Source: Escherichia coli (GTDB lineage: Bacteria > Pseudomonadota > Gammaproteobacteria > Enterobacterales > Enterobacteriaceae). From it: a DNA stretch of 64,000 bases. The translations under genes and the position numbers were made by a program. Under the pieces are notes generated by a model. It ran no database searches and was not told where the DNA came from. It saw only the letters and a list, made by a program, of their open reading frames with translations. Where the stretch lies: NCBI RefSeq assembly GCF_030013595.1, contig NZ_CP122768.1, one strand, 5' to 3'. Shown here piece by piece: positions 34,336 through 53,312 of the stretch (positions within the stretch are counted from its first letter, which is position 1; each line of letters opens with the position of its first letter).

Positions 34336-34363
34336 CCAGCATTAGCAATGCGCTGTAATTTTT

Positions 34364-35266
34364 TTATTGATAAACAAAAGTCACGCCAATAATCGATTGC
34401 ACATTCCCTGCAGTCACCTGCCCTCCGGTACGTGCGTAATTTGCCGTTAATCCCAGACTTACCGCCGAAGTCCCTACTGCTCCTAACGATACCGTGTTAT
34501 TCGCTGGAATAATCGTACCGTTGCGCGTCAACTGTACGCCGACGCCCTGCGCTGGTGAAAACGACGCGGTATTGGTGAAAATCGAGTTGCCCGCATCTGC
34601 GGTTGTGCCGGAGAGGTAATACCCCAGGTTTTGGCTTTTCGCACAATAAACGGTAAGAGGAATTGGCACTGAACCAGGGTAGTCCGGCAGAGTAACGGTG
34701 ACATCACGAGCAGAAACATCACAGCCGCCAGTAGGCACCACCACATCATTATTGGCGTAAATATTCCACACAAACTGGAAATCATCGCTGTTATAGTTGT
34801 TGGTCTGTCGCAAAATTAGCACGGCAATTAATGAGCCAGCTTTAATCGCCACCCCGCCAGCACTGCTCACAGGCGTCAAATAAAGCGCCACCGGCCACGG
34901 CTTATCCGTTCTCGAATTATAAACAACCCGCGGCGTTTCGCTGGTGGTAGGAAATGGATAGCTACTGCCACTATATTTTACGGTCCCGGAAAAATTAGAT
35001 AACACGCCGCCATAAGCCGAGCCTCGTTGCAGTGTGACATAGTCTGTAATGGTTTCCGGGTAATCGTTATGGCAAAAGATTTGCGTCGAAAGATCTACGA
35101 CCAGGTTTTGCCCCACATTCACGGCGGGCGCAAGGTTTACATAAACATTGGCGCTGCCACCGCCAATAGGGATAGCGGTACCATTGGCGGTTTTACAGGC
35201 GAATGACCAGGCATTTACCGACCAGCCCATCAGCAGTACAGCAAACAGGGTAATAACTCGTTTCAT
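34364..35266 (-). CDS. fimH: Type 1 fimbrial tip adhesin FimH
   Basis: ORF MKRVITLFAVLLMGWSVNAWSFACKTANGTAIPIGGG... is near-identical to the FimH lectin-domain sequence as I recall it. Confidence 0.95.
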   Translation of the reverse strand: MKRVITLFAVLLMGWSVNAWSFACKTANGTAIPIGGGSANVYVNLAPAVNVGQNLVVDLSTQIFCHNDYPETITDYVTLQRGSAYGGVLSNFSGTVKYSGSSYPFPTTSETPRVVYNSRTDKPWPVALYLTPVSSAGGVAIKAGSLIAVLILRQTNNYNSDDFQFVWNIYANNDVVVPTGGCDVSARDVTVTLPDYPGSVPIPLTVYCAKSQNLGYYLSGTTADAGNSIFTNTASFSPAQGVGVQLTRNGTIIPANNTVSLGAVGTSAVSLGLTANYARTGGQVTAGNVQSIIGVTFVYQ

Positions 35267-35285
35267 TACAATCATCTCTTCGGGT

Positions 35286-35789
35286 TCAGCTGTAGGTATA
35301 GGTGATGCTAATCACTGCCTGAATGGTTCCCTGAGTGGCTCCGCCATTTACCGTCAATGCTCTGACCTGTAACGGGAAGTGCGCTGATTGTGAGGAATCA
35401 TCCACCTGAACTGTTTTGGTTGCGCCACTATTCAATGTGTTGCCACTGTCATCCTGTCGCTCTAACTGGATGTTTTGCGCGGTCCCCTGGTTTTTATAAT
35501 ATCCGGTACTGTCGGCTGCCCCGCTGAAGCTGGCGGTGACCCTCGACGTTCCCACCGGACAATTAGTCAACTCAAGCGCAACATCATGCCAGGCCGATGC
35601 CGCCCCGGCAGACATCAGACTGAAAGAATAAAGATCGCCGAGATCTACCGTGGCATTGGTGGTGGAAACCGTGCACGGTTTGGCGACGACCTTACCGTTC
35701 ACCGTGATGGTGACATCGGCTGCCTGTATCGTCGCACTTGCGAGCGCCAACATTGCCGCCAATAAATACCCACGTTTGCGCCATTTCAT
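35286..35789 (-). CDS. fimG: Type 1 fimbrial minor subunit FimG
   Basis: 167-aa pilin-like ORF in conserved fim order. Confidence 0.9.
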   Translation of the reverse strand: MKWRKRGYLLAAMLALASATIQAADVTITVNGKVVAKPCTVSTTNATVDLGDLYSFSLMSAGAASAWHDVALELTNCPVGTSRVTASFSGAADSTGYYKNQGTAQNIQLERQDDSGNTLNSGATKTVQVDDSSQSAHFPLQVRALTVNGGATQGTIQAVISITYTYS

Positions 35790-35801
35790 GAGCATCTCCA
35801 G

Positions 35802-36332
35802 TTACTGATATTCAAGAGTGAAGGTAGCCGTGGCATTGATATGCCCCGCAGTGACAGGCACCTGTGTCGCCATTAGCCGGGCGTAAAAATTCAGCGTATT
35901 TGGTTTACCCGGCGTCAGGGTCGTCCACGAAAGCGCGGACGATGGGGCATTAAGGGGTATCTGATTTTGTTGCTCATTCAGAAGCTGTATTCCCAGTCCC
36001 GCAGCCGCTGACACCGTATTTTCAAGTGCAAGCAGGTTGGCATTGTGGCTATCTGCAACACCGGTAAACCCAACTTTTACGGCAGAAACGGCATTACCAC
36101 AGGGTGACAGCAAAATACGAAATGGAACGACAGGAGTCGTCGCGCCAATGTTGTTAAATTGCTTCGCCGCGTTTTCCATCAGATCAACAGTAAAATTGGT
36201 TGATTCAGCGGCCACACTACAGCCGTTATCTCTGACATAGCCGCGGATAGTAATCGTGCTATCCGCAGCCAAAGCGTGACTCACCGCCAGCCACAAAAAA
36301 GCGCACAGAAGATAAAAAGGTTTGTTTCTCAT
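35802..36332 (-). CDS. fimF: Type 1 fimbrial minor subunit FimF
   Basis: 176-aa pilin-like ORF in conserved fim order. Confidence 0.9.
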
Positions 36333-36341
36333 CACGCCCCC

Positions 36342-38978
36342 TTAACGACATTCAGCTGATAGCTGGGTTAATAACTGCTGCTGACTCTCTGGTGGCAGTT
36401 GATAATTGGCGACACAATGAGCATTTTCCTCTTCTCCCCATTTCACCTGAACTTTTCCCGCTAGAGGCATTCCGCTGAGGTAAACCTGACCATTATCCGC
36501 AACAATGCCGCTACTCTGGCTACTCTCTGATGTCACCATCGCCCCAAACGGCAGCGGCTTATTATTGTGGGTTAGCGTCATGAGCAGTTTTATCCCAACG
36601 CGCGCTTTAAACTCTGCTCGCACGATCGCTCCACGAGTGGGAACAACGTTAGCGACCGCGTTATCTAAATCGACGTTATCAGCCAGGGTATTGGTATCCA
36701 GCGCCACTCTGTTTTCCCGATATTCAGTGGCATAAGGCAGCACGGCATAACCGCGCCAGTCGGTACGCACCCCCGTCTGGTTTTCGACTTTTGCATCTTT
36801 TGCGCCAGGCGCTTTAACAAGCACCACCGTATCGTTTAACGGCTGCCCCAGCGTTACGCCATTGGCATGAGCCAGTACCCCACCGCTGACTCCATAATAG
36901 AGCTGCTTAATATCATCGCTATGGCTGTAACCGATGTTGGCATTGCCGTAACCACCGCGATAATTCAGCGTGGCGTAGCCTGTGCTTCCGCTATTACCAT
37001 CGCCTCCCCCGGCATAGCCGGTTTGCACGCTATAGCTGAGGTTGTTGTCTTCCAGCAACGTACCGTATACACCGGCCAGATTGGTCATCCGACCGTTGAG
37101 ATCGTGTGACATGCTGTAGCTGGCACTGGCATGTCGCCACTGAGATTTACTGTCAGAACGCAGCCAGTGGCTGAAAGGAATATTGACGTTAAGCGCTAAC
37201 ATCTGATCCCGTCCTTTTTGCCAGGCGTTTTTCGTCAGGCTATAGCTGAGCGTCCAGTTGATATCTTCGAATGCAGTATTTAAACCAGCCTGGAATTGCT
37301 CATCGACATTACTCGTTCCCCAATAAGTTTGATGGCTACCACTCAAATACAGTGTTGATGTGCGCCCGAGTTGCTGAGTAACGGTGAGTTGTAATTTCCC
37401 GCGTTTGTTATAAGCGAGATTGTAATAGTCGGTGAATTTCGGCTTAACCTGAATAACACCATCCTGTGTTTCGATGTTGTAGCCATTCATTCGACTGTAT
37501 GTTGTATCAGCGAAATTAAAATACCCACTGGTCGAATAACGGTAACCCACTAACTGAATATTCGTGCCTGATTCATTGAGCGATTTGTTATAGAGAAAAC
37601 GCACCGATTGTCCGTCATGCTGACTGTCATCGGGAAGTGTGGAATTAGCCTGCGTCATATCCACAGACAGAGCGCCCAGTGCCCCCATGTTTTTCCCGAT
37701 ACCGAAATTAAAAGCACGATAACGATCCGCCAGTTGCGTTCCACCATATATTGTCCAGCCAGCCGGAAGGCCGTGGAGTAATGTACTCTGGAAAAAGCGA
37801 GGTTTTTCCTGCTGCGCATTTCCACTACGGTATTCTCCTGCCGTAATGGAATAACGAGTATGTCCTTCCCGTTGCAAAAGCGGGACTGACGAATAGGGTA
37901 CGGTAAAGATCTGCGTGCTGCCGTCAGCCTCTTTAATCGTTACCTGCAAGTCACCACTATTACCTGCGGCATAGATATCGTTGATGGTAAAAGGCCCCGG
38001 TGGCACCGTACTATTATAAATGTCATACCCATTTTGTTTAATAGTGACCTGTGCAGTACCACGAGCAATACCGTGGATCACCGGGGCAAATCCTCTTTGG
38101 CTATCGGGTAACATATTGTCATCTGAGGCCAATTGTGCGCCGCGAAAGTTAATACCATCGAAAATATCGCCCTGGGTATAACCATCACCCAGCGTCAGCC
38201 GGGAACGTAACGGAATTATGTCTCGCTCAAGCCAGGTATTGATATGCTGCCATTTATTTTTGCTACCTGATGAACTGTCGTTACTGTTATAACTCCAGGT
38301 GGTATTGTCGCGTAAACGCCACGCACCAATATTTAGCCCACTCTGTAGGTTTAAATATGCATAATGGCTGTTACTACCAATCCGATTCTGTACACTATTT
38401 CCGCTGAAATTATAATTGAGCAAGCCGGCATTAATACCGGGATCCCACAACTCAGGAGGAATATATCCACGCGCGCGATTACTCATAAATGCCTGAGGGA
38501 TCGTCAGGTTGAGTCGCTGCTGACCAACATCTAAATGCGCAGTAGCGTCATGGATCATTGAGGTTAATGGCACGCAGGCATCATCCGCCAGCAGATTCAT
38601 ACCGGAGACAGAAGCCGTATTCAGCCCCATACTGGCAAGTTGCGCGCGTGTCAGGCAGGGAACAATCCCTTGTTCACTGTCGCCCGTGTTAAATGTGACA
38701 TCACGCGTTGCCATATAACCATTATTCAAATAGATATCGACGCGATACGTCCCTGGCGGTAATTCTTGCCCATTTTCAAAACGCGATAAATCGGCCACAG
38801 CCTGGGGATCATCCGCTAAAAAGCGCGGATTAAAATAGAGTTCGGCAGATGACAAAGGTGCCTGTGCGGCAAAAGCACAGGCGACAAAGAGCCGGACAAA
38901 AAGACCAGCCAAACGATGCTTACGAACATGCAAGCATTGTGTGTTTCGCTGGTAAAGTCTTAAATTCAGATATGACAT
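36342..38978 (-). CDS. fimD: Fimbrial outer-membrane usher FimD
   Basis: 878-aa usher-family ORF. Confidence 0.95.
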   Translation of the reverse strand: MSYLNLRLYQRNTQCLHVRKHRLAGLFVRLFVACAFAAQAPLSSAELYFNPRFLADDPQAVADLSRFENGQELPPGTYRVDIYLNNGYMATRDVTFNTGDSEQGIVPCLTRAQLASMGLNTASVSGMNLLADDACVPLTSMIHDATAHLDVGQQRLNLTIPQAFMSNRARGYIPPELWDPGINAGLLNYNFSGNSVQNRIGSNSHYAYLNLQSGLNIGAWRLRDNTTWSYNSNDSSSGSKNKWQHINTWLERDIIPLRSRLTLGDGYTQGDIFDGINFRGAQLASDDNMLPDSQRGFAPVIHGIARGTAQVTIKQNGYDIYNSTVPPGPFTINDIYAAGNSGDLQVTIKEADGSTQIFTVPYSSVPLLQREGHTRYSITAGEYRSGNAQQEKPRFFQSTLLHGLPAGWTIYGGTQLADRYRAFNFGIGKNMGALGALSVDMTQANSTLPDDSQHDGQSVRFLYNKSLNESGTNIQLVGYRYSTSGYFNFADTTYSRMNGYNIETQDGVIQVKPKFTDYYNLAYNKRGKLQLTVTQQLGRTSTLYLSGSHQTYWGTSNVDEQFQAGLNTAFEDINWTLSYSLTKNAWQKGRDQMLALNVNIPFSHWLRSDSKSQWRHASASYSMSHDLNGRMTNLAGVYGTLLEDNNLSYSVQTGYAGGGDGNSGSTGYATLNYRGGYGNANIGYSHSDDIKQLYYGVSGGVLAHANGVTLGQPLNDTVVLVKAPGAKDAKVENQTGVRTDWRGYAVLPYATEYRENRVALDTNTLADNVDLDNAVANVVPTRGAIVRAEFKARVGIKLLMTLTHNNKPLPFGAMVTSESSQSSGIVADNGQVYLSGMPLAGKVQVKWGEEENAHCVANYQLPPESQQQLLTQLSAECR

Positions 38979-39044
38979 TATTCCTCCGGTTTAAAATCAC
39001 CCGGCAGTCAATTCTTTTTATTCAGGCGAAAAATTCCCCCTGCG

Positions 39045-39770
39045 TTATTCCATTACGCCTGTCATTTTGGGGGTAAGTGCGCCATAATCATTTATTGTTC
39101 GGTAAGTAATATTGCTTCCTGCATCAGAAGGCAATTTAACCGTGCTTTCGCCCATTGGAGGCACCAATGCATTTTCAAGAACCCGGGTTCCGGCATTCAA
39201 CTCTGTTACCGTCAGGTAATAGGGTGTCGGGTTAATCAGCGTCAGAGAATTCGCGCTACGACGAAATCTTAATTTTTCTGCGGCCTGATCGGGTGGCAAC
39301 GCTAATTTAGCCGGGCGATAGTACAGTTTAATGCGGCTGATAATTGCGAGCTGTAGCGTATTCTCAGTCAATTTTGATTTATCCATTGACGGAATCGCTT
39401 TAACGTTCATCCAGAATAAACTTTCCCGATCCTGTGGCAATTGGTTATTTGTTGCATCAAGAATACGCAAGGTATTCTCTTTTTTTCCCTTCATCGCAAA
39501 CAGAGGAGGCGTCACGATAAAACGACCATCCTTTACACCATCGGCATTTTCCACCCATGATTGAATTAAATAGGTGCTATTTTCATCATTATTTGTCACG
39601 GCAAGTTGCACTTGTTTTTGCCCTGCCGGATAAATTACGCGAGTCGCACCTAAGGCCACTCCCGCTTCAGCGCGTCCGGCAACCATCATTGCCATGAACA
39701 TCAGGATACCTGCCAGCAAGCAGAATGTTATTTCCTGCGATTTCCTTACATTGACGTTTTTATTACTCAC
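39045..39770 (-). CDS. fimC: Periplasmic fimbrial chaperone FimC
   Basis: 241-aa PapD-like chaperone ORF. Confidence 0.95.
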   Translation of the reverse strand: MSNKNVNVRKSQEITFCLLAGILMFMAMMVAGRAEAGVALGATRVIYPAGQKQVQLAVTNNDENSTYLIQSWVENADGVKDGRFIVTPPLFAMKGKKENTLRILDATNNQLPQDRESLFWMNVKAIPSMDKSKLTENTLQLAIISRIKLYYRPAKLALPPDQAAEKLRFRRSANSLTLINPTPYYLTVTELNAGTRVLENALVPPMGESTVKLPSDAGSNITYRTINDYGALTPKMTGVME

Positions 39771-39806
39771 TGTCCTGTTCCTGTTATCACATTATCTGCT
39801 GAACAA

Positions 39807-40346
39807 TTACTGATAGGTTAAAGAGAACCAGGCCTGGGCATTGGCGATGCCGCCAGTAACCCGACGCCCGGTAGCACGATATTTGGCGATGAAATGTAGC
39901 GAAGTAGAGCCTGAGTAAAGCCGTTTCCAGTTTGCTGGAGGACGATTAATCGGTACGAGGTTTCCTTCATCATCAAATAACGCTACGCCAATATTTGTGG
40001 CTATCCCTGGCCCCTCTCCCACGGAAAGCACATCCGGATTTTTACCATCCGCGACACCGTGAAACGCCACACCCACACGTTCACTCACCACCGTGCTACA
40101 TTCCCGTAAATGAATAACAAAAGGCACCGGTGCGCTATCTTCCCCTACCGCATGAAACCGGTTACTGCTGATTTGCCCCATATTGACCGTCATTTGTTTA
40201 TCACCAGCTTCAACTCGGCAAGTTTCCGCAATAATGACGCCCTGAAATTGCATATTTCCGCCGGGCAGCGTGGTATTCCATTTATTTCCGGCCAGAGCAA
40301 ACATTGGCAGCAACGACGCTAATAGAAATAATCTCTTCCTTTTCAT
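39807..40346 (-). CDS. fimI: Fimbrial protein FimI
   Basis: Pilin-like ORF; start chosen at [12 protein letters not shown] (179 aa) although the frame is open further upstream to 40478. Confidence 0.85.
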
Positions 40347-40410
40347 CGTTATTTTTATCGCACAAGGGTGGGCATCCCTGCCCGTAATGACGTCCCTGAA
40401 CCTGGGTAGG

Positions 40411-40959
40411 TTATTGATACTGAACCTTGAAGGTCGCATCCGCATTAGCTGCGCCAGGGGTTGCGGCACCGGTTGCAAAATAACGCGCCTGGAACGGAAT
40501 GGTGTTGGTTCCGTTATTCAGGGTTGTTTCTGAACTAAATGTCGCACCGTCCAGCGCCAGCGCAGCACCCGTTCTGTCCAGGATCTGCACACCAACGTTT
40601 GTTGCGCTACCCGCAGCTGAACTCTGCAGAGCCAGTACATCAGTATGCGTAGCATCAATTGCCGTACCTAAGAAGGCAACAGCGGCTTTTGTGGCAACAG
40701 TGGTATCGCAATCATTCAGCTGAATGTTAAAACCAACGGCAGAGCTGGTTGCTCCAGCCTGCTTCAGGCTAGCGGTACGAACCTGGCCCAACTGAACGGT
40801 TTGATCAACAGAGCCTGCATCAACTGCGCAAGCGGCGTTAACAACTTCCCCTTTAAAGTGAACGGTCCCACCATTTACCGTCGTAGTATCGGCCAGAGCC
40901 GCTGCGGAACTGAGGGACAGAGCCGACAGAACAACGATTGCCAGAGTTTTAATTTTCAT
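40411..40959 (-). CDS. fimA: Type 1 fimbrial major subunit FimA
   Basis: [26 protein letters not shown]... (182 aa from this Met). Confidence 0.95.
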
Positions 40960-41078
40960 GCTGCTTTCCTTTAAAAAAACTATTTCTAAATCGACATGGG
41001 CAGTCGTTCTGTACACTTTGTTTTGTCAACGAGTTTGACTGCCAACACTGCACAGTTTTCCCCCAAAAGATGAAACAT

Positions 41079-41392
41079 TTGGGGCCATTTTGACTCATAG
41101 AGGAAAGCATCGCGCACAAACTTTTTCAGTTTATTTGTTGGCTTAATATTCTATTGTTATCTTTATTTATAGATTTTTATATTGCATGATGTGGTTTTTG
41201 GAGAGAAGAATGAGGAAGATGCGTCGAGCCACAGAAACGTTAGCTTTACATATAGCGGAGGTGATGTGAAATTAATTTGCAAGAGAAATAATTTACATAT
41301 CAAACAGTTAGATGCTTTTTGTCGTTTTTTAATATTTTTATGCTTGAGAAAAAATACGTAACTTATTTATGATATGGACAGTTTGGCCCCAA
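41079..41392. promoter_or_regulatory. fimS: fimS invertible phase-variation switch (314 bp between 9-bp inverted repeats)
   Basis: TTGGGGCCA at 41079..41087 and its reverse complement TGGCCCCAA at 41384..41392, located between fimA and fimE; spacing of exactly 314 bp matches the described fim switch. Confidence 0.9.
41344..41373 (+). promoter_or_regulatory. Sigma70-like promoter inside fimS (TTGAGA-18 bp-TATGAT), reading toward fimE
   Basis: Hexamers read directly from sequence at 41344..41349 and 41368..41373; predicted start about 41380, immediately before the fimE-proximal inverted repeat. Confidence 0.5.
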
Positions 41393-41438
41393 TTGTCTTG
41401 TATTTATTTGTTTTTGCCTTTGCTATCAATAAGTTAAA

Positions 41439-42035
41439 TTAAACCTCTTCTCTTTTTAATTTTTCGTTTATGAGATTATTTCTTTCCCATAATCCGGCAA
41501 AACGAGCAGCATTACTGGCGGTATAACGCACTGTATGGCGAATATTTCGATGCCCGAGATAATCCTGAATTAAACGGGTATCTGCACCACGCTCCGCCAG
41601 TTCATAACCGCAAGCATGCCTTAACATATGAGGATGAGTCTGCGTTACGGTTCCAGCTTCAATGCCGGCATCGCGAATAATGCGATAGGCCTGCTGGCGA
41701 GAAAGCCGACTCCCGCGGCGAGAAATAAATATAGCGTCGGTCCGGTCAGCGCCTTTCCAGTTAGCACGTTCCTGGGTCCAGCGTTCCACGGCTTCACGCT
41801 CATCAAAACGTAACGGGTGAACGGTAGAAAATCCGTTCTTCAGTCGGCGAATATTTATTCGACCTTCATTAAGGTCAAGATCCTGATAATGCAGATCAAG
41901 CAGTTCACTAATACGCATCCCATGCCGATATGCCAACAGAATAAGACAATAATCTCTGGCTCCCGTTGCCCCGTAACAAACCGCCTGCATCATGGCCTGA
42001 ACTTCTTTACCGGTAAGATAACGACGTTTACTCAC
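41439..42035 (-). CDS. fimE: Tyrosine recombinase FimE (fim switch ON-to-OFF)
   Basis: 198-aa integrase-family ORF with the R..H..R..Y catalytic region (HPHMLRHACGYELA...LGHRNIRHTVRYT). Confidence 0.95.
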   Translation of the reverse strand: MSKRRYLTGKEVQAMMQAVCYGATGARDYCLILLAYRHGMRISELLDLHYQDLDLNEGRINIRRLKNGFSTVHPLRFDEREAVERWTQERANWKGADRTDAIFISRRGSRLSRQQAYRIIRDAGIEAGTVTQTHPHMLRHACGYELAERGADTRLIQDYLGHRNIRHTVRYTASNAARFAGLWERNNLINEKLKREEV

Positions 42036-42512
42036 AATAGTAGTACTCCTGACTGAGATATATTTGAATGAATACCTATAGGAAACCTCAATCGGTCAAA
42101 ATTAGCCCAATAGATAAAAAGATAACCACACACGAAGTGATGTGGCTATCAGTCAATTACATTAAATATCATACAAAAATAAAATATCACCGATGTGACA
42201 ACATCTATTTTCATTGATTTGATTCAATATAACAATAGATTGCAGAAGATTAACTTCCAGTTGCTTAAAAAATAAAGAAAAAAGTGTGGAAACAGGAGAA
42301 TTTAAGTGATGTGTAAATTTATGAATGATTTTGTTTATTTATTTTGAAGAACATAAACCATTGGATTTTGTATGGGTATGGTTAACTTAATGTTTATTAT
42401 GATAATTAAGAATCACACTTACAATAACATCAATTAATAAATGGTTAATCATTTTTGATATATCGTAAGAATAATGTAGTTTTTAACACCATCCCTGGTA
42501 TCTCGACTATCT

Positions 42513-43115
42513 CTATAAAACAGCGTGACGCTGTCGTCCTCTGGCTCTATCCCAGATGCCGTAAAAACGCCCTGCATTGCTGGCGGTATACCAGACAGTA
42601 TGACGAATATTGCGATGCCCAAGATAATCCTGGATAAGTCGCGTATCTATTCCCATATTCGCCAAAGCAAAACCACACGAATGGCGTAACATGTGCGGAT
42701 GAATCTCCAGTGACAACCCGGCATTACCACCAGAAGTCGAGATAATATGGTAAAACTGTTGCCGAGAAAGCGGATTCCCCTTACGTGATAAAAATACCCA
42801 CTCGCTCTCAGCATGCGGATACGAAGTACGGATACTCAACCAGTTTTTTAAAGCCTGAACTTCTTTGTTCAATAGCGGGTGCGTTGTTGAAAAGCCTTTT
42901 TTTAATCGATGGATATATATACACTTTGCCTTAAGATCAATATCCGAAATCCTCAATCGACAAATTTCACTCGCCCGGAAACCATGAATAAAACAAAGCA
43001 AAGTCAGACAATAATTACGTGCTGCATGAGGCCCGGTATTTGCTGCTTTAAGGAGTGACTCGATTTCACTATGGGTAAGGAAGTTCCTTTTTTTGTTATC
43101 AGCCTTATTCTTCAT
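42513..43115 (-). CDS. fimB: Tyrosine recombinase FimB (fim switch, both directions)
   Basis: 200-aa paralogue of FimE (HPHMLRHSCGFALA...LGHRNIRHTVWYT). Confidence 0.95.
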   Translation of the reverse strand: MKNKADNKKRNFLTHSEIESLLKAANTGPHAARNYCLTLLCFIHGFRASEICRLRISDIDLKAKCIYIHRLKKGFSTTHPLLNKEVQALKNWLSIRTSYPHAESEWVFLSRKGNPLSRQQFYHIISTSGGNAGLSLEIHPHMLRHSCGFALANMGIDTRLIQDYLGHRNIRHTVWYTASNAGRFYGIWDRARGRQRHAVL

Positions 43116-44127
43116 CGTTTTCCCTTATAATTACAGACGCGCACTAGCTGTGCTGGGTTAGCAATAAACCAACAATTTAATCCTGATTATGTTTATAAAA
43201 GCGAACGTTTGCTTAATAACTAACGTAAGTGAACCAGTTCTTCTGAGCGAACTTAAATGGAGTAGCGATAGTTACTTATAATAACTTTGCCATACAAACG
43301 CCATGCTCTTGCATGCTATGTACCTTTATATATTTATCAATCTGATACGAATCTAATAATAACCCTCATCATTAATGCAACTAATCTTATCTATATATCA
43401 TGTGATATGTTCTGTAACAAGTAAAATCAACATAAAAAATTCAGCAAAATTTAATATTCGTTCAACTAGCCGTCTCACATATGACATTATTAGTCAACTG
43501 CATTTGCCACAAAATGGCTATTTCATGGAACGCAGTAATTTCTTAGTGGCTATTATCAAGCTAATTCTTAGGTCCCTAGCGATTATTCCTGGCTGGTTCG
43601 TCAGTTTAGGTCATGAGATTGTTACATTCCTTTTTATCCTGGAGATATGGGGGAACGCAGGCGACGCTTTTTCATCTACATCCGTTGGTAAATATGGCTT
43701 TGGTCACTACGACTTAAACCCTCCTCAATCACAGCTACTCGCCGGGCGATACGGCAAACAAGCTAATTGAAACATCATCCTGAAAACACCAGCATCAACA
43801 AGCCTCTCCAGATCGACATCAGGAGTGACCAGTTACAAGCCACAAACCAAGAAACATATTTCATGATGAGAATTATGCTCAGCCTGATGGCGGGTAAACA
43901 CTTATTTTCACCAAGCTCACTGAGTTAGCTTGCAAAGCTTTCTTTGTTTAGATTCTAAATAAATTATTTATAAAACAGATAATTAAAAGAAAATCTTTAG
44001 TTTTTGAAGACCACCGCAAGTGTTCGTCTGGCTTCACATGGCATCTGCCTCTTAGAAAAAGATCGACATATTTTGTGACACGAATTGCAAATCTGGTTTT
44101 GTTGTATGGATTGCGTGATTTTTGATC

Positions 44128-44147
44128 TGGTATAACAGGTATAAAGG
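44128..44147. promoter_or_regulatory. Candidate NanR operator (tandem GGTATA repeats) upstream of nanC
   Basis: GGTATAACAGGTATAAAGGT lies about 420 bp upstream of nanC; NanR is known to bind repeated GGTATA hexamers. Confidence 0.55.
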
Positions 44148-44566
44148 TGCACCACGATAGTCAATGAGACTGGGCATCTCGTAATCTATGGCAAACATCA
44201 CTTCAGTTCTTTCACATCGGGTGATGAAAATGCACTTCAGTCTGAAAGGAATATGAAAATGAGATCAACAGACACTCTATTTTATGACTCTGGGTAAAAT
44301 GGATTGAGTAAGTGATATAGCTTACGAACATTCAAATCAATTAAACATCAGAAGAGATTTTATACTCAGGTATTTAATCTGGTTCTCTGTTTATTTAAAT
44401 AATGTGGAAAGAGAATTTTCACAGGAGACCTTATACAAAAAATATAAAATAAGCTACCCGTTGCCAAAGACACTATAAGCCTGGCAAAAAATATTACACA
44501 ACATAAATGCTAATTGTTTATGCGGGCTTTGTATTGCTTTCTGTATCCTACAAATGAGTGAAATTT

Positions 44567-45283
44567 ATGAAAAAGGCTAAAATACTTTCTGGCGTATTAT
44601 TACTGTGCTTTTCGTCACCATTAATTTCTCAGGCTGCGACACTGGACGTACGTGGTGGATATCGTAGCGGAAGCCATGCCTATGAGACTCGACTCAAAGT
44701 CAGTGAGGGATGGCAAAATGGATGGTGGGCAAGCATGGAAAGTAATACCTGGAATACCATTCATGATAATAAAAAGGAAAATGCCGCACTCAATGATGTT
44801 CAGGTTGAAGTTAATTACGCGATTAAACTTGATGATCAATGGACGGTGCGCCCGGGAATGTTAACGCATTTTAGCAGCAACGGCACACGCTACGGACCCT
44901 ACGTAAAACTGTCCTGGGACGCGACAAAAGATCTTAATTTTGGCATTCGCTATCGTTACGACTGGAAAGCTTACCGACAACAAGACTTATCCGGTGATAT
45001 GTCTCGTGATAACGTTCATCGTTGGGATGGATATGTCACTTACCATATTAATAGTGATTTCACCTTCGCATGGCAAACGACGCTATACAGCAAACAGAAC
45101 GATTATCGCTATGCAAACCATAAGAAATGGGCGACGGAAAATGCATTTGTTCTACAATACCATATGACGCCCGATATTACGCCATACATAGAATATGACT
45201 ACCTTGACCGTCAGGGTGTTTACAACGGCAGAGATAATTTATCGGAAAACAGTTATCGCATTGGTGTGTCATTTAAACTGTAG
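44567..45283 (+). CDS. nanC: KdgM-family outer-membrane sialic acid channel NanC
   Basis: ORF with start chosen at MKKAKILSGVLLLCFSSPLISQA (238 aa), aromatic C-terminus typical of beta-barrels. Confidence 0.9.
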   Translation: MKKAKILSGVLLLCFSSPLISQAATLDVRGGYRSGSHAYETRLKVSEGWQNGWWASMESNTWNTIHDNKKENAALNDVQVEVNYAIKLDDQWTVRPGMLTHFSSNGTRYGPYVKLSWDATKDLNFGIRYRYDWKAYRQQDLSGDMSRDNVHRWDGYVTYHINSDFTFAWQTTLYSKQNDYRYANHKKWATENAFVLQYHMTPDITPYIEYDYLDRQGVYNGRDNLSENSYRIGVSFKL

Positions 45284-45302
45284 TAGACAGGAGACAGTCA
45301 CA

Positions 45303-46409
45303 ATGAATAAAACAATAACGGCGCTTGCTATCATGATGGCTTCATTTGCCGCAAACGCGTCTGTATTACCGGAAACTCCTGTGCCATTTAAAAGTGGTAC
45401 CGGAGCAATTGATAACGACACTGTCTACATTGGTTTAGGTAGCGCAGGTACGGCATGGTACAAGCTGGATACACAGGCCAAAGATAAAAGATGGACAGCG
45501 TTAGCTGCATTCCCTAGCGGACCGAGAGATCAAGCAACCTCTGCATTTATTGATGGCAATCTGTATGTGTTTGGCGGCATTGGCAAAAACAGCGAGGGCT
45601 TGACTCAGGTATTTAATGACGTACACAAATACAACCCCAAAACCAATAGCTGGGTTAAATTGATGTCGCACGCGCCGATGGGCATGGCGGGCCATGTGAC
45701 TTTTGTACACAACGGCAAGGCTTATGTTACTGGCGGTGTTAACCAGAATATCTTCAATGGCTATTTTGAAGATCTCAACGAGGCTGGAAAAGATTCAACC
45801 GCTATAGATAAAATCAACGCCCACTATTTTGACAAAAAAGCAGAAGATTATTTCTTCAATAAGTTTCTGTTGTCTTTTGATCCCTCAACACAGCAATGGA
45901 GTTACGCTGGCGAATCTCCCTGGTACGGAACGGCTGGTGCGGCGGTTGTGAATAAAGGTGATAAAACCTGGCTTATTAATGGCGAAGCCAAACCAGGATT
46001 GCGAACGGATGCCGTATTTGAACTTGATTTCACCGGTAATAATTTAAAATGGAATAAGCTTGATCCCGTCTCATCACCAGATGGCGTCGCTGGCGGTTTT
46101 GCGGGGATAAGCAATGATTCTCTTATATTTGCCGGAGGGGCCGGATTCAAAGGTTCACGAGAAAATTACCAGAACGGTAAGAACTATGCGCATGAAGGTC
46201 TGAAAAAATCATATAGCGCTGATATTCATCTTTGGCATAACGGGAAATGGGATAAATCGGGTGAATTATCGCAAGGTCGGGCCTACGGAGTATCATTGCC
46301 CTGGAATAATAGTCTATTGATTATTGGCGGTGAAACTGCAGGCGGCAAAGCGGTGACGGATTCAGTTTTGATCTCTGTGAAGGATAATAAAGTCACAGTA
46401 CAAAACTAA
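45303..46409 (+). CDS. nanM: N-acetylneuraminate mutarotase NanM (Kelch-repeat beta-propeller)
   Basis: ORF in track, start chosen at MNKTITALAIMMASFAANA (368 aa); synteny after nanC. Confidence 0.9.
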   Translation: MNKTITALAIMMASFAANASVLPETPVPFKSGTGAIDNDTVYIGLGSAGTAWYKLDTQAKDKRWTALAAFPSGPRDQATSAFIDGNLYVFGGIGKNSEGLTQVFNDVHKYNPKTNSWVKLMSHAPMGMAGHVTFVHNGKAYVTGGVNQNIFNGYFEDLNEAGKDSTAIDKINAHYFDKKAEDYFFNKFLLSFDPSTQQWSYAGESPWYGTAGAAVVNKGDKTWLINGEAKPGLRTDAVFELDFTGNNLKWNKLDPVSSPDGVAGGFAGISNDSLIFAGGAGFKGSRENYQNGKNYAHEGLKKSYSADIHLWHNGKWDKSGELSQGRAYGVSLPWNNSLLIIGGETAGGKAVTDSVLISVKDNKVTVQN

Positions 46410-46473
46410 TGCTTCAGGGCCCCAGTAAAGGGGCCCTGCTATCAATTTATCATTTCAATTACGCGAAAATTAT

Positions 46474-47454
46474 ATGAACGCAATAATATCGCCCGATTAT
46501 TACTATGTTCTTACCGTTGCTGGTCAGTCTAATGCCATGGCGTATGGCGAAGGACTGCCATTACCGGACGGGGAAGATGCGCTTCATCCCAGAATTAAAC
46601 AATTAGCGAGATTTGCGCATACGCATCCCGGAGGCCCGTCATGTCACTTTAACGACATTATTCCACTGACTCACTGCCCACACGATGTTCAGGATATGCA
46701 GGGTTATCACCATCCTCTGGCAACGAATCATCAAACACAGTACGGCACCGTTGGCCAGGCACTGCATATAGCACGGAAATTACTGCCCTTCATTCCTGAT
46801 AATGCAGGGATTCTCATCGTTCCGTGTTGCCGTGGCGGATCGGCTTTTACCGCGGGCAGCGAAGGGACATATTCAGAACGGCACGGAGCCAGCCATGATG
46901 CTTGTCGTTGGGGAACGGATACTCCGCTATACCAGGATTTAGTCAGCAGAACGCGAGTCGCACTGGCAAAAAATCCGCATAACAAATTCCTCGGCGTATG
47001 CTGGATGCAAGGCGAATTTGACTTAATGACCAGTGACTACGCGTCACACCCTCAATACTTTAATCATATGGTTGAAGCCTTTCGTAGGGATCTAAAACAA
47101 TACCATTCTCAGCTTAATAATATTACTGACGCACCGTGGTTTTGCGGCGATACCACCTGGTACTGGAAAGAAAATTTCCCTCATGCGTATGAAGCGATTT
47201 ATGGCAATTATCAAAATAATGTTTTAGCCAATATTATTTTCGTCGACTTCCAGCAACAAGGTGAAAGAGGACTGACGAACGCGCCTGATGAAGATCCGGA
47301 CGATTTAAGCACGGGATATTACGGTTCAGCGTACCGGTCACCGGAGAACTGGACGACGGCACTGCGAAGCAGTCATTTCAGCGCGGCAGCCCGTCGGGGG
47401 ATTATTTCTGACAGGTTTGTAGAAGCAATTTTGCGGTTTTGGCGCGAAAGGTGA
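46474..47454 (+). CDS. nanS: 9-O-acetyl-N-acetylneuraminate esterase NanS
   Basis: 326-aa ORF; synteny in the nanCMS operon. Confidence 0.85.
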   Translation: MNAIISPDYYYVLTVAGQSNAMAYGEGLPLPDGEDALHPRIKQLARFAHTHPGGPSCHFNDIIPLTHCPHDVQDMQGYHHPLATNHQTQYGTVGQALHIARKLLPFIPDNAGILIVPCCRGGSAFTAGSEGTYSERHGASHDACRWGTDTPLYQDLVSRTRVALAKNPHNKFLGVCWMQGEFDLMTSDYASHPQYFNHMVEAFRRDLKQYHSQLNNITDAPWFCGDTTWYWKENFPHAYEAIYGNYQNNVLANIIFVDFQQQGERGLTNAPDEDPDDLSTGYYGSAYRSPENWTTALRSSHFSAAARRGIISDRFVEAILRFWRER

Positions 47455-47608
47455 GCGTTCATTAATTTGATTTATTTGCATCCATTAGCGCTTTTAACTG
47501 CTCCGGCGAAAACGGTGGTTTGCGTCGGTGCAACATCGCATGGCAATTGGGGTACACAGGCAGCAAAAAAACAAATGAGATCAAGGTAATATATCTTCAC
47601 TTGCAGGC

Positions 47609-48538
47609 TTGAACAGCAGAAAATTTGCGAGCATGATCGCAATTATTTCACTGCCAGGGATATCAATGGCTTCCAGTAAATCGCTACAGCAGGCAATTGC
47701 CAATATAAAAATCTGGCACAAGGGTGAACAGCGCGCGCCGCATAAGCCATTGTTATTGCTATACGTATTAGCGGGATACCTGAATGGACATCCGCGCCTT
47801 TTCGATTATGGATCGGAAATCTACGAACCTCTGCACAGTTTACTGGAACGTTTTGGGCCACAGCGTTCACAGTACCGACCTGATATGCCGTTCTGGCGAT
47901 TACAAGGCGACGGATTCTGGCAATTACACAATGCCGAGCTTTGCTCAACAGCAGGGAGCAGCCGACAACCACCAGTGAAGGAACTGATTGAATACCACGT
48001 TGCAGGCGGTTTCGATGAACAGCACTACGCCCTGGTAACTGGCAATAAAAAACTCATCAATACTCTGGCGCAACAGATACTCGAAGCGCACTTCACCGAG
48101 AGTATTCAGGAAGAAATTGCTGACGAGCTGGGTTTTGATCTCCAGCAAATCCGTAAACAGCGCGACCCGTTATTTCGCAAAAATGTATTACGCGCTTATA
48201 AATACCAGTGCGCGATATGTGGCTTTAATATGCGCCACGACGACGCCACCGTCGCGCTTGAAGCGGCGCATATAAAATGGAAACAGCACGGCGGTCCTTG
48301 TGAAATTCCTAATGGCCTAGCGCTTTGCGCAATTCACCATAAAGCCTTTGATAAAGGATCGATTGGCCTGGACGAAAATATGCGGGTACTGGTATCAGAT
48401 GCGGTAAACGGCGGAGGGATCGTTGAGAGATTATTCTGGGATTTTGACGGGAAAACTATTGCGTTGCCGCAGGTGCGTAAAAATTACCCTTATGAGGTGT
48501 TTGTTGAGTGGCATCGGAAAGAGGTTTTTAGGGGGTGA
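47609..48538 (+). CDS. HNH-endonuclease domain protein with uncharacterised N-terminal domain (possible type IV restriction-like enzyme)
   Basis: C-terminal HNH signature CAICGF...EAAHIKWKQHGGPCEIPNGLALCAIHHKAFD; N-terminal ~200 residues unassigned. Confidence 0.65.
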   Translation: MNSRKFASMIAIISLPGISMASSKSLQQAIANIKIWHKGEQRAPHKPLLLLYVLAGYLNGHPRLFDYGSEIYEPLHSLLERFGPQRSQYRPDMPFWRLQGDGFWQLHNAELCSTAGSSRQPPVKELIEYHVAGGFDEQHYALVTGNKKLINTLAQQILEAHFTESIQEEIADELGFDLQQIRKQRDPLFRKNVLRAYKYQCAICGFNMRHDDATVALEAAHIKWKQHGGPCEIPNGLALCAIHHKAFDKGSIGLDENMRVLVSDAVNGGGIVERLFWDFDGKTIALPQVRKNYPYEVFVEWHRKEVFRG

Positions 48539-49094
48539 GGTTGATAACTATCGCAGTATGTTCAATATTGCTGACATAATCAGTGCAGGATCTTGCCGCT
48601 AGTTTACAACTCGCCTTCGATAGCGGCGCAAAACGAGTTCTGTTGCCGATATCCTGGGCTATGGATATTTCAACAGTTCCGGCAGAGTTGTTTACCAAGT
48701 TTCAGGTAAGTTTTTACTCATAACCGGTTGATGCGGTTTATAAGGCGCTGGATGTGAATTAACACATTCCTCAGTTTATTTACAAAAGGATTATTCCCAT
48801 TTGATATAATATAAGTGCCAATTTACTTTTTCAATGGAATATATCTCGGCTAAATAACAATAAAACTTATCGCTAATGGATTAAATAAACAATTTTCTAA
48901 TTTATTTCACCACCTTTGATATAGAAATTGATGGTGTTGTCGCTGCCATTGCTTATGGTGATGATAAAATCCACGTTTCTGGATCGGTGCGTAGAAAATC
49001 ATCACTACCTTGATATTTTGATGCGATATGATCATACCGTTCCGTAGTACCAATTTCAACTTCAGGCTAAACCCCAACATTAAAAAATTTAGAG

Positions 49095-49136
49095 TTATTC
49101 ACTGATTATATTATCATTAATATAATCAGTGAATAA
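49095..49136. repeat. Perfect 19-bp inverted repeat with 4-bp spacer
   Basis: TTATTCACTGATTATATTA-TCAT-TAATATAATCAGTGAATAA, checked base by base; lies 116 bp downstream of the 651-aa gene. Confidence 0.8.
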
Positions 49137-49251
49137 CATGGACTATATAATAAATTGCTCTAATCATTTCCCTTACGAATATATGGGCCAAAAGCCCAAG
49201 AATCATAATAAGGGTGATGGACTAATTTTTCATTAAATCGAACACTATAAG

Positions 49252-51207
49252 TTAATTTTTTATATTTTTACGTACAGCATTAATACTGGGCAAAGAGGAA
49301 AGATAATCTATAAACTTATCGATAGTGATTTCCCCTTCGCAACACTCAAACCCATCAATGATATTTTTCGCCATTTTTCCATTTTCATTTGTTTGATATA
49401 TCACTCCAGGTATTCGTTGAAAAAAACTAGATAATGCATATTTGTCCGCTACATATGTATCATCCACATGATATTTCCCACCGAGCATAGTTGTAGTAAC
49501 AATAAGCTTATACACACCTTTGGGTTGCCATGTTGATGGTAGTTCGAATTCTTTAATGATCACATCAAGATGATTAAGATAATGTTCAGAAATTCGATTT
49601 ATTTGTTGAAAATAAGAACGCATAAATTTATTATTATGATCATGTATTAATGAGCTATCTCCAACGATGTTACACACTTGCTGATAGTACTTACCATAAT
49701 ATATTGGTTGACCATTTGATTTTAGTTCTGTAAAAATCAAACAATCATCCAAGAGAATCACGCAATCGCACTGATAATTAGCATGAGCATCAATTGGAGA
49801 AGCTTTAATCCCCGCATCACGAACTTGTTTTATAAATTGTTGTTCATGAAATCGCCCTTTACTTGCTTGAGAAATTTTTTTGGAACCAAATAATGACATT
49901 AGAGAGCGAGTCACTGAGCTATTTGCTATTAATGCAGGCATTAAGAATAAACCGTCCATACAGGGAATAAATGGGCAATCATTAAGATCATGTGATTTTG
50001 AATTGAAGGTAAAATAATCTATCAGTTTTTTTGCTGCATCTGCTGCAATCCCCTTACGTTGAAAGAATGATAACCAACTCTCACGGCTTTTTATGATCAG
50101 CCAGCGCTCCAACTGTAGGGGTATAGGCTTTGTCGATGAAAATCTTTTGCTCATTTCTTCTTTAGATAACTCGACTAAACATTGATAAGCGTGCACCCAA
50201 TTAAATAATGATATATTCCCATATTCTTCATGAAGGTCATCAGGAGACATATTTTCTAACTCGCTTAGATGAAATGAGCTAAAAACGCCATCAGAATTTA
50301 AGTAAGATGGCATATGATCCTTTACCCAACTATTTAGATGAAAATGTTTGTTACTAAATTCATGAACTTCGCTATATAGATGTGACGCTCTCATCATTAG
50401 TCTATTTCTTGCAATCTCATAATCTCGGTATAAACAAAAACTATCAACCTCAAGAGAGTAAATGTTATTATCCAATTTTGTAAATACTGCACTACTTAGT
50501 CTGAAAAAATCTCTTACTCTGCTTAATGAGTCAAAAACATTCCACTCATTAAGGTACCCTCCCATTGAAAGCAAGGTTTGTTTATTCACACAAGAAGTTA
50601 GTTTCAATGGCCCATGAGTCCGTAAATAAGAAAATATTCTTCCGGTGTAATTGGCTACCTCATCAAATGCCCTATCGATAACTCGAAAATATTCGATATC
50701 AGGTTCAGCATGAATATTAATATTTTCAGAAACGATAAATAATGGAAAAATCCTCTTCATTTTTTTAGGATCATTGACCACAACCAAGGATGATAATGAT
50801 GATAAAAACATCTCACAAAACATGATGAGATTAAGTATTAATGCATGTGATTTTTTTGTATTTTTACGCCAAATACCAGCACATTTTGTAGCCGCAAAGA
50901 AAGAATTATTTATATCATGCATAATTTTACATTGACTCTCGAACTCAGAGATTAGTTCAATGTTATCAGGAAATGAGTTTCCTAGCTCATTAATACATTT
51001 TTTGAATGTATTGTTATACTCAACTTCAGTCTGAACTGAAAATCTATTATAATAGATGGAAGATATTCTTAGCACATCCAAGGCGATATCTATACTAATA
51101 TCATCTCTTTTTATGTACTCACAAAAAAAAGAACAAAACTGTTTCGGGTCGTTAGCAAGATTACTAATTCTAGTGGTATCATAAACTTTTTCCATTTTTC
51201 CATACAT
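49252..51207 (-). CDS. Uncharacterised low-GC 651-aa protein at the leuX islet
   Basis: Long ORF in strongly AT-rich DNA immediately 3' of tRNA-Leu (leuX); possible PD-(D/E)xK-like motif (CDCVILLDDCLIFTELK) near residue 480; otherwise no recognisable domain. Confidence 0.7.
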   Translation of the reverse strand: MYGKMEKVYDTTRISNLANDPKQFCSFFCEYIKRDDISIDIALDVLRISSIYYNRFSVQTEVEYNNTFKKCINELGNSFPDNIELISEFESQCKIMHDINNSFFAATKCAGIWRKNTKKSHALILNLIMFCEMFLSSLSSLVVVNDPKKMKRIFPLFIVSENINIHAEPDIEYFRVIDRAFDEVANYTGRIFSYLRTHGPLKLTSCVNKQTLLSMGGYLNEWNVFDSLSRVRDFFRLSSAVFTKLDNNIYSLEVDSFCLYRDYEIARNRLMMRASHLYSEVHEFSNKHFHLNSWVKDHMPSYLNSDGVFSSFHLSELENMSPDDLHEEYGNISLFNWVHAYQCLVELSKEEMSKRFSSTKPIPLQLERWLIIKSRESWLSFFQRKGIAADAAKKLIDYFTFNSKSHDLNDCPFIPCMDGLFLMPALIANSSVTRSLMSLFGSKKISQASKGRFHEQQFIKQVRDAGIKASPIDAHANYQCDCVILLDDCLIFTELKSNGQPIYYGKYYQQVCNIVGDSSLIHDHNNKFMRSYFQQINRISEHYLNHLDVIIKEFELPSTWQPKGVYKLIVTTTMLGGKYHVDDTYVADKYALSSFFQRIPGVIYQTNENGKMAKNIIDGFECCEGEITIDKFIDYLSSLPSINAVRKNIKN

Positions 51208-51883
51208 CCTATTGTCTAAATTACTATAAAACTAGCCACTTAACTAATAATTATAAATTTCATCTTTTACACCTTGCATTTTTATAACCAATGAAATCTA
51301 CAACAAGCAACTGATGGATAATCCGATATTGGTCGCATTTAATGGCATGGTAGCAAAGTTTTCATCACATACCTCCTTTGCACCAGAATAAACGCCAGAG
51401 ATCTGAAATTGCGAGTACACTACAGAAATTGTACTGCCGGTCCCATCAGCATAAAACCATAGTTACACAGGTAATCATCATTATTCGCCAAGATAATAAA
51501 TATTATTCGGTAGAATAGCGTTCTCAGGTGGTCAGTAAAATTGTCTTCAACAAGATGTCTGCGCATCTCGTCTGCTAGCCCTACATAACTGCTCTCGACC
51601 GAAACTATTTATTGAATGTTCACCAAGGTGGCGTGGAGACAAAATGACGTCTTTTGATATTAGCTACCTGAGCCACATGGTCAAAACGTTCAAGTAGCAT
51701 ACCGAAACCACCCTGCCCACGTAATGTGGACGATGCAGCTTCCAGCCAGAGCAAACTTGGGACCATCGACTACAAAATGAAGAATACTGAACTGCTTTTC
51801 TGGCAGGCCTATATACTGCACGGATATGGGTGATTTCAGACACAAAAAAAGCCGCTCTTGAGCGACTCGATTTGCATACGGTG

Positions 51884-51968
51884 TGGTGCCGAAGGCCGGA
51901 CTCGAACCGGCACGTATTTCTACGGTTGATTTTGAATCAACTGCGTCTACCGATTTCGCCACTTCGGC
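51884..51968 (-). tRNA. leuX: tRNA-Leu (anticodon CAA), leuX
   Basis: Reverse complement of 51884..51968 is GCCGAAGTGGCGAAATCGGTAGACGCAGTTGATTCAAAATCAACCGTAGAAATACGTGCCGGTTCGAGTCCGGCCTTCGGCACCA, with wild-type CAA anticodon and encoded CCA end. Confidence 0.95.
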
Positions 51969-52163
51969 ACTGAAGAGGTATGCGGAAAACGTTGTGGATT
52001 ATACCTGTCGCACGCCACCATGCAAGCGCCAGCTTGCTCGCACCTCGCTAAGTGCTGAAATTTTCAGCATTGCATACAGCGATGTGTAACCTTTGTCACA
52101 CTCCAGGCACCCCGCCCTGCCATGCTCTACACTTCCCAGACAACACCAGAGAAGGACCAAAAA

Positions 52164-53183
52164 ATGTCGATGATAAAAAGCTATGCCGCAAAAGAAGCTG
52201 GCGGCGAACTGGAACTTTATGAGTATGATCCCGGTGAATTGAAGCCACAATATGTTGAAGTGCAGGTGGATTACTGCGGGATCTGCCATTCCGATCTGTC
52301 GATGATCGACAACGAATGGGGATTTTCACAATATCCGCTGGTTGCCGGGCATGAGGTGATTGGGCGCGTGGTGGCACTAGGGAGCGCCGCGCAGGATAAA
52401 GGTTTGCAGGTCGGTCAGCGTGTCGGGATTGGCTGGACGGCGCGTAGCTGTGGTCACTGCGACGCCTGTATTAGCGGTAATCAGATCAACTGCGAGCAAG
52501 GTGCGGTGCCGACGATTATGAATCGCGGTGGCTTTGCCGAGAAGTTGCGTGCGGACTGGCAATGGGTGATTCCACTGCCAGAAAATATTGATATCGAGTC
52601 CGCCGGGCCGCTGTTGTGCGGCGGTATCACGGTCTTTAAACCACTGTTGATGCACCATATCACTGCTACCAGCCGCGTTGGGGTAATTGGTATTGGCGGG
52701 CTGGGGCATATCGCTATAAAACTTCTGCACGCAATGGGATGCGAGGTGACAGCCTTTAGTTCAAATCCGGCGAAAGAGCAGGAAGTACTGGCGATGGGTG
52801 CCGATAAAGTGGTGAATAGCCGCGATCCGCAGGCACTGAAAACACTTGCGGGGCAGTTCGATCTCATTATCAACACCGTCAACGTCAGCCTCGACTGGCA
52901 GCCCTATTTTGAGGCGCTGACCTATGGCGGTAATTTCCATACGGTCGGTGCGGTTCTCACGCCGTTGCCGGTTCCGGCCTTTACGCTGATTGCGGGCGAT
53001 CGCAGTGTCTCTGGTTCTGCTACCGGCACGCCTTATGAGTTGCGTAAGCTGATGCGCTTTGCCGCCCGCAGCAAGGTTGCGCCGACCACCGAACTGTTCC
53101 CGATGTCGAAAATAAACGACGCCATCCAGCATGTGCGCAACGGTAAGGCGCGTTACCGCGTGGTTCTGAAAGCCGATTTTTGA
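52164..53183 (+). CDS. ahr: Zn-dependent NADPH aldehyde reductase Ahr (YjgB)
   Basis: ORF with start chosen at [14 protein letters not shown] (339 aa); MDR family Zn-ligand motif GHEVIG and CGICHSD. Confidence 0.9.
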
Positions 53184-53312
53184 TCCCTTTGCCGGGTGCC
53201 TGTCGCCCGGCACTTAACTCTCTTTGGAAGGCGTCTCGCAATCTGCTGAATTTAGCGGTGAAGAGTGCGCAGCCGTTGCCTATACTCCAGGCAGGAAACT
53301 GGAGGAAATCTC

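Follow-up and report, generated by a model that had tools for sequence, protein, structure and literature searches.

In Escherichia coli K-12, NanR and NagC control nanCMS and activate fimB remotely, with IHF assisting NagC, and H-NS repression close to the promoter of fimB is relieved by SlyA; both sialic acid and GlcNAc reduce fimB expression and hence the off-to-on switching of type 1 fimbriae (PMC3173223; PMC5401889; PMC5934670). fimB is among the operons that require two NagC sites, bound cooperatively via DNA looping (PMC5401889). The described NagC loops at nagE-nagB, chb and glmU likewise consist of two cooperating 23-bp sites with a DNA-bending protein between them (PMC5401889), as does the fimB pair; unlike those loops, however, the NagC-bound complex of the fimB pair activates a promoter approximately 470 bp away. 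NanR binds no more than 5 bp from a GATC at nanA, nanC and yjhB (PMC5155068), and genomic SELEX places it on the nanC/fimB spacer (PMC5934670). In vitro, NanR stays bound at the nanC/fimB site even with Neu5Ac (PMC5934670), so the mechanism may involve more than NanR simply coming off the DNA. Both NanR binding and the Neu5Ac response are known from K-12 DNA (PMC8012715, PMC5934670). Host-source markers already make use of the variable sequence between nanCMS and fimB (PMC11267920).

Here, we compare with these systems the fimB-nanC region of an E. coli window, i.e., the whole stretch of 64,000 nucleotides that was analysed. The fimB start codon (ATG, minus strand) ends at 43115 and the nanC ATG lies at 44567, such that the two genes are divergent and enclose an interval of exactly 1451 bp (43116..44566; 36% G+C), which agrees with the gap of about 1.45 kb given in the earlier note. 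A GTG at 44558 serves as the nanC start in the mechanical ORF list only. The encoded FimB and NanC proteins are each 100% identical to their K-12 MG1655 counterparts. The corresponding K-12 spacer between b4311 and b4312 has the same flanking genes in the same orientation and a length of 1455 bp (NC_000913.3 4539502..4540956). It aligns with ours end to end and without rearrangement, with 55 substitutions and 6 gap columns over 1456 columns (95.8% identity), and the segment from nanS to fimI forms a single 7.4-kb BLAST match to K-12 at 97.6% identity. The features on which the comparison depends are listed below in the order of their coordinates.

42513..43115, minus strand: fimB coding sequence, a 200-aa ORF (Pfam Phage_integrase, E = 2e-58) for the tyrosine recombinase that flips the fim switch.
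43116..43385, minus strand: putative fimB 5' leader of about 270 nt, placed from the SlyA positions and PMC3173223.
43391..43420 (approximate), minus strand: probable fimB core promoter, TTGTTA and TATATA separated by 17 bp, 6-7 nt upstream of the putative start.
43525..43770, plus strand: hypothetical protein WP_157909759.1 (PGAP), 81 aa, annotated in the near-identical strain HCP5S3_I2.
43553..43564, no strand assigned: SlyA operator O_SA1 in the variant form TTAGCtTGATAA, located by sequence search; the K-12 form according to PMC3173223 is TTAGCaTGATAA.
43568..43579, no strand assigned: SlyA operator O_SA2, CTAGGGACCTAA, identical to K-12.
43855..43877, no strand assigned: predicted NagC operator O_NC2 (published as 'fimB2'), an exact match, CATAATTCTCATCATGAAATATG on the fimB strand.
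43878..44060, no strand assigned: spacer between O_NC2 and the GATC on the O_NC1 side, 183 bp, hypervariable in sequence and fixed in length.
44061..44064, no strand assigned: Dam GATC adjoining O_NC1, kept in 11 of 12 alleles (PigCaeca_2 has TATC).
44067..44089, no strand assigned: predicted NagC operator O_NC1 (published as 'fimB1'), an exact match, TGCAATTCGTGTCACAAAATATG on the fimB strand.
44124..44127, no strand assigned: Dam GATC abutting the NanR operator, found by sequence search and within 5 bp of it.
44129..44151, plus strand: predicted NanR operator GGTATA-ACA-GGTATA-AA-GGTGCA, recognised by identity to the K-12 nanC operator and by pattern scan.
44152..44566, plus strand: putative nanC leader of about 415-440 nt, placed from the operator position, with transcription predicted to begin at about 44123..44131.
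44567..45283, plus strand: nanC coding sequence (Pfam KdgM porin, E = 1e-28), a sialic-acid outer-membrane channel.

The NanR operator, both NagC sites, O_SA2, both operator-adjacent GATCs and the 212- and 62-bp spacings between operators are identical in K-12. Taken together, the sequence comparison indicates that the locus is very probably the orthologue of the K-12 nanC-fimB control region, in which one operator set would serve two divergent transcription units. This is in line with the earlier note, which regarded the interval as the known sialic acid/GlcNAc control region, and the operators do match the published K-12 sites. The region represents well-studied E. coli control biology and, because the NanR and NagC sites are intact, is ordinary here. 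Of the 5426 complete E. coli genomes, 5109 contain it, although only 64 carry an intergenic allele at least 99% identical to ours. The intergenic region of one pig isolate, HCP5S3_I2, is identical, and the genome of this isolate matches window positions 23116..64000 at 99.94%. When contigs were scanned once with a degenerate pattern for the fimB N-terminus, the matches listed were a short MAG contig and a record from E. coli, with no other Escherichia species among them.

In all its units, the third among them, the NanR operator equals that of K-12 nanC. Two perfect GGTATA hexamers (44129..44134 and 44138..44143) are followed by the degenerate unit GGTGCA (44146..44151). The tandem repeats placed at 44128..44147 by the earlier note are thus real but displaced by one nucleotide, the string GGTATAACAGGTATAAAGGT spanning 44129..44148. 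A search of the 64 kb for GGTATA-N3-GGTATA-N2-GGT with up to two mismatches returned this site alone, with zero mismatches, against a mean of 0.08 matches expected from dinucleotide-preserving shuffles. The window operator and the K-12 nanA, nanX (yjhB) and nanC operators have in common a 26-nt core, TGATCTGGTATAACAGGTATAAAGGT, and the TGATCTGG junction is present at all three K-12 NanR operators. The operators of nanATEK-yhcH and nanXY (yjhBC), described as (GGTATA)3 (PMC8012715), share with ours this core with its Dam site and hexamer spacers of 3 and 2 nt, but their third hexamer is GGTATA whereas that of the present operator and of K-12 nanC is GGTGCA. Moreover, activation of a distant gene (fimB) has been credited to the nanC operator and not to the other two. 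Since a two-repeat oligonucleotide showed a similar NanR affinity but formed only two complexes (PMC8012715), the number of NanR dimers loaded on the operator in our window may be lower. The operator is positioned 438 bp upstream of the nanC ATG, an arrangement found also in K-12, and 744-766 bp upstream of the putative fimB start. No direct or tandem repeats were found in the region beyond the operator. A partial inverted copy in the fimB leader (TATATAAAGGTACA, 43319..43332, minus strand) was considered as a second NanR site and rejected, because it is one of 49 matches to the NanR motif at three mismatches in the window, with 35 expected by chance.

To score the NagC sites, we built a matrix from eight of the ten sites in Table 1 of PMC3098098, with the two fimB sites removed, palindromised it and scanned the whole window. 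O_NC2 was the best match in the 64 kb (19.8 bits) and exceeded the best match of all 500 intergenic shuffles. O_NC1 ranked third in the window and second within the region (11.6 bits); it is marginal alone, given a 95th percentile of 14.3 bits for the best match in shuffles, and exceeds the 95th percentile for the second-best match. Both sites are base-for-base identical to those of K-12. The distance from O_NC2 to O_NC1 is 212 bp and that from O_NC1 to the NanR operator is 62 bp, in all 12 alleles. For the fimB NagC sites of K-12, Sohanpal et al. 2007 reportedly also give 212 bp. O_NC2 lies 470-492 bp upstream of the putative fimB start. A CRP-like sequence, TGTGA-N6-TTGCA, overlaps O_NC1 at 44074..44089 with two mismatches; 0.72 such matches are expected by chance, and this candidate CRP site, although placed where the literature would lead one to look, was discarded as indistinguishable from chance.

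We examined conservation in 12 alleles sampled at regular intervals along the ranking by similarity; K-12, ST131, O157:H7 and APEC IMT5155 are among them. Of the 1470 intergenic columns, 178 are variable (12%). None of the 28 columns of the GATC and NanR operator varies, nor does any of the 23 columns of O_NC1, and O_NC2 varies in 1 of 23, its outermost base. The NagC-NagC interval (43878..44066), on the other hand, varies in 46 of 189 columns (24%), with no indels between the NagC sites in any of the 12 alleles; all indels fall outside the 297-bp module at 43855..44151. Here, we show that 1) the operators are essentially invariant, 2) their spacing is fixed, and 3) variability peaks in the spacer that separates the NagC sites. 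A second panel, comprising the eight strains with full flanks, gave a nucleotide diversity of 0.079 for the spacer and 0.008 for the operator block, compared with 0.044 at the four-fold sites of fimB and 0.016 at those of nanC. Both panels were chosen by intergenic similarity; the counts over the whole collection are free of that choice and point in the same direction. Of the 5099 genomes with the 91-bp block spanning O_NC1 and the NanR operator (44061..44151), 4027 have it at 100% identity. The flanking genes are much more uniform than the spacer: among 5065 records with a nanC match, 4764 are at least 99% identical in nanC DNA, and fimB is 95-100% identical everywhere (97.8-100% in sampled records). 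Operators and spacings that do not change, set in rapidly evolving DNA, form a clean natural footprint; it independently supports the K-12 operator map and indicates that what is conserved in the spacer is its length and not its sequence. This contrast is the one mildly unexpected result, the strain having a rare allele of the rapidly evolving spacer.

On the fimB side, the SlyA sites have been described as lying 194 to 167 bp upstream of where fimB transcription begins (PMC3173223). From these distances and the positions of the SlyA sites here, we infer that fimB transcription starts near 43385. The resulting distances of the NanR operator and O_NC2 (744-766 and 470-492 bp) agree with PMC3173223, where the distant operators are placed 'between around 760 and 470 bp upstream'. 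The putative promoter sits within the longest invariant run of the 12 alleles (43355..43458), and this 104-bp stretch is identical in K-12. A scan for consensus promoters in the region gave 2 matches, compared with 6.6 expected, and none at the positions expected for the nanC or fimB promoter. The two SlyA operators (O_SA2, CTAGGGACCTAA, and O_SA1, published as TTAGCATGATAA) retain their 3-bp spacing and are expected at about -170 to -190 relative to the fimB start. O_SA1 reads TTAGCTTGATAA here and differs from K-12 by one substitution (A to T) away from the SlyA consensus, which it matches at 9 of 12 positions, compared with 10 of 12 in K-12. On the nanC side, the leader varies in 8.6% of its columns across the 12 alleles, and the predicted fold of its RNA is no more stable than that of shuffled sequence (z = -0.49). 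No Rfam family matched the region at the gathering threshold or at E <= 1.

For this strain, we infer from K-12 experiments that the proteins bind, in which direction they regulate and where transcription starts, and a working model would run as follows. The 297-bp module is composed, in order, of O_NC2, a 189-bp spacer that IHF is reported to bend, O_NC1, 39 bp, and the NanR operator with its GATC. O_NC1 and the NanR operator would lie on or just downstream of the nanCMS promoter and keep nanCMS off, until repression is lifted by N-acetylneuraminate via NanR or by GlcNAc-6-phosphate via NagC. The same NanR and NagC complexes would also stimulate fimB from 470-760 bp upstream of its promoter, with SlyA at 43553..43579 counteracting H-NS near that promoter. 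Host sialic acid or GlcNAc would then lower fimB expression, and with it off-to-on switching of type 1 fimbriae, and would at the same time induce the NanC, NanM and NanS uptake functions.

A first alternative holds that the operators are retained but that regulatory output differs in this lineage, the spacer and the weaker O_SA1 changing, relative to K-12, either how much fimB is expressed at baseline or how sensitively it responds to GlcNAc or sialic acid. The spacer has indeed diverged, with 12 differences from K-12 in 183 bp (6.6%), 11 of which cluster in approximately 55 bp, and with one K-12 GATC lost. Its allele is rare: just 3 of the 5426 genomes reach 99% identity to it, whereas 2645 lie at 90-95% and 828 at 80-90%. 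Segregating sites are also more frequent in the spacer than at flanking four-fold synonymous sites (41/183 vs 15/176, Fisher p = 4e-4), although unconstrained DNA would show high diversity anyway. Regarding IHF, one K-12 match with a single mismatch (AAACAAATAGTTA) is weakened to two mismatches here, but two other one-mismatch matches at 43958..43972 are unchanged between the window and K-12. These lie at the spacer midpoint (the midpoint between O_NC2 and O_NC1 is 43972), where the literature expects them, and are statistically indistinguishable from chance (about 0.42 expected). IHF tolerates sequence variation, which likewise counts against a changed output, as does the strict preservation of module length and phasing. 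Finally, the lower consensus match of O_SA1 is offset by the presence of the same base in the ST131 and O157:H7 alleles, so the variant is a common natural allele. We therefore consider an altered output in this strain unlikely. The related and more general idea, that the 183-bp spacer could act as a tuning element for lineage-specific fimB levels or GlcNAc/sialic acid sensitivity, seems to us equally doubtful; if true, changes in intrinsic spacer curvature or in IHF or H-NS affinity would set these levels or sensitivities, and so the propensity to switch on type 1 fimbriae in different hosts.

A second alternative is that the ORF at 43525..43770 encodes a small hydrophobic protein antisense to the fimB promoter region, contrary to the earlier note, which had called the gap non-coding. 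This ORF is the only one annotated in the gap (in HCP5S3_I2), would encode 131 aa if read from the ATG at 43375, and is intact in 7 of the 12 alleles, two of them with an in-frame 12-bp insertion. However, its frame is broken by frameshift or nonsense mutation in the other five (K-12, where it is frameshifted, O157:H7, strain 746, ABW_A19 and PigCaeca_2). Its codon variants are 6 synonymous to 15 non-synonymous, without an excess at third positions relative to the two other frames, and its product has no Pfam family. All 91 database relatives (64-100% identity) come from the same E. coli locus and none from elsewhere, and those that appeared divergent are E. coli alleles with a 70-bp deletion, a 17-bp deletion, single-base indels or an IS insertion. 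Given the broken frames and the lack of purifying selection, the 81-codon ORF is, as judged from its alleles, not a gene, which makes a protein product very improbable and leaves the gap non-coding as the note had it; the 'hypothetical protein' that PGAP places there does not merit the status of a gene. The 135-codon stop-free stretch to which the frame belongs is reached in only 1% of shuffles and represents a small curiosity.

The reading that the GGTATA repeats and NagC-like sites are functionless chance matches in AT-rich DNA (36% G+C), to which the chance-level frequency of the loose NanR motif and the non-significant matrix score of O_NC1 alone lend some support, is effectively refuted by the uniqueness of the strict NanR pattern, by the score of O_NC2 above every shuffle and, above all, by the identity of the sites to experimentally characterised K-12 sites and their invariance across diverse E. 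coli while the intervening DNA varies.

Under the orthologous reading of the locus, the regulatory architecture has been kept despite differences in the neighbouring island, as the earlier note had maintained. The distance from nanS to tRNA-Leu(CAA) is only 4.4 kb here, compared with a K-12 interval (KpLE2) that we take to be about 40 kb, consistent with K-12 coordinates. Because the leuX island is thus reduced to about 4 kb, the third NanR-regulated operon, nanXY (yjhBC), is not next door, and the link between sialic acid/GlcNAc sensing and fimbrial phase switching appears structurally intact nonetheless. The importance of this observation beyond annotation quality is small. The nanR, nagC, ihf and slyA genes all lie outside the 64-kb window.

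The two proteins encoded on either side of the control region, NanC and FimB (fimB, 42513..43115), are identical to those of K-12, yet the intervening DNA is 4% different. At the nucleotide level, nanC (44567..45283) is unusually uniform in E. coli, with at least 99% identity in 4764 of 5065 records. Diversity is high in the spacer (43878..44060) that separates the two NagC sites, O_NC2 (43855..43877) and O_NC1 (44067..44089). Nucleotide diversity there is 0.079, compared with 0.044 and 0.016 at the four-fold sites of fimB and nanC, respectively, so that this non-coding segment is more variable than the synonymous sites of the genes adjoining it. Only 3 of 5426 genomes carry a spacer with at least 99% identity to the allele in the window, and 828 match it at only 80-90% identity. 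The length of the spacer is constant. A 9-bp patch near 43988..43996 takes seven distinct sequences among 12 strains, and some lineages (K-12, O157:H7) have a GATC within it that the window lacks.

Variation at the SlyA site O_SA1 (43553..43564), upstream of fimB, is confined to one polymorphic position, which is A in K-12, T in the window, ST131 and O157:H7, and C in PigCaeca_2, another strain of the 12-allele panel. O_SA1 matches 9 of 12 SlyA consensus positions in the window vs 10 of 12 in K-12. The same stretch overlaps an open reading frame antisense to the fimB upstream region:

43525..43770, + strand: 81-codon ORF (131-codon form starting at 43375), for which the PGAP annotation of HCP5S3_I2, a near-identical genome from a pig isolate, gives a hypothetical protein, WP_157909759.1.

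The frame is open in 7 of the 12 alleles and disrupted in K-12 and O157:H7; 99% of shuffles give a shorter run without stop codons. We saw no purifying selection on it across the 12 alleles, and no homologues of its product were found at other loci. WP_157909759.1 is probably a spurious gene call.

Natural disruptions of the fimB-nanC locus occur in other strains, including L005 (ST131), L013 (APEC IMT5155), the metagenome contigs L017 and L019, and hits H28/H29. In the ST131 genome fimB is truncated, and in APEC IMT5155 it is frameshifted. Contig L017 has an IS (DDE transposase) within the intergenic region, and the match of L019 stops just short of the NanR operator. Additionally, a 70-bp deletion has removed both SlyA sites from contig L018, and partial matches in some genomes begin at position 263 of the intergenic region.

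On a larger scale, one collinear BLAST segment against K-12 (window 40075..47457) spans fimE-fimS-fimA; therefore, the fim switch has the orientation of the MG1655 reference sequence. Beyond it, the leuX island (47455..51883) is only about 4.4 kb, compared with about 40 kb in K-12:

47609..48538: HNH-family endonuclease, with PADLOC matches to the HNH model and to those for type II and type IV (methyl-directed) restriction enzymes.
51884..51968, - strand: tRNA-Leu(CAA), leuX, at which the island lies.

The sister genome annotates this endonuclease as a phosphorothioated-DNA-binding restriction endonuclease. A 651-aa ORF in the island (49252..51207, - strand) had no Pfam or PADLOC match, and the NanR-regulated nanXY operon is absent from the window. 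The second-best match to the NagC matrix in the window (51479..51501, 13.8 bits, CATTATTCGCCAAGATAATAAAT) sits between this ORF and leuX, and is probably a chance match.

Elsewhere in the window, gntP (32771..34114, + strand) contains an internal stop codon and is likewise labelled a pseudogene in HCP5S3_I2. Finally, Rfam Ysr276 (Yersinia sRNA 276, antisense type) gave a strong match at 57983..58177 on the - strand (185.8 bits, E = 6e-56), falling inside, and antisense to, the pepA coding region (57425..58936, + strand).
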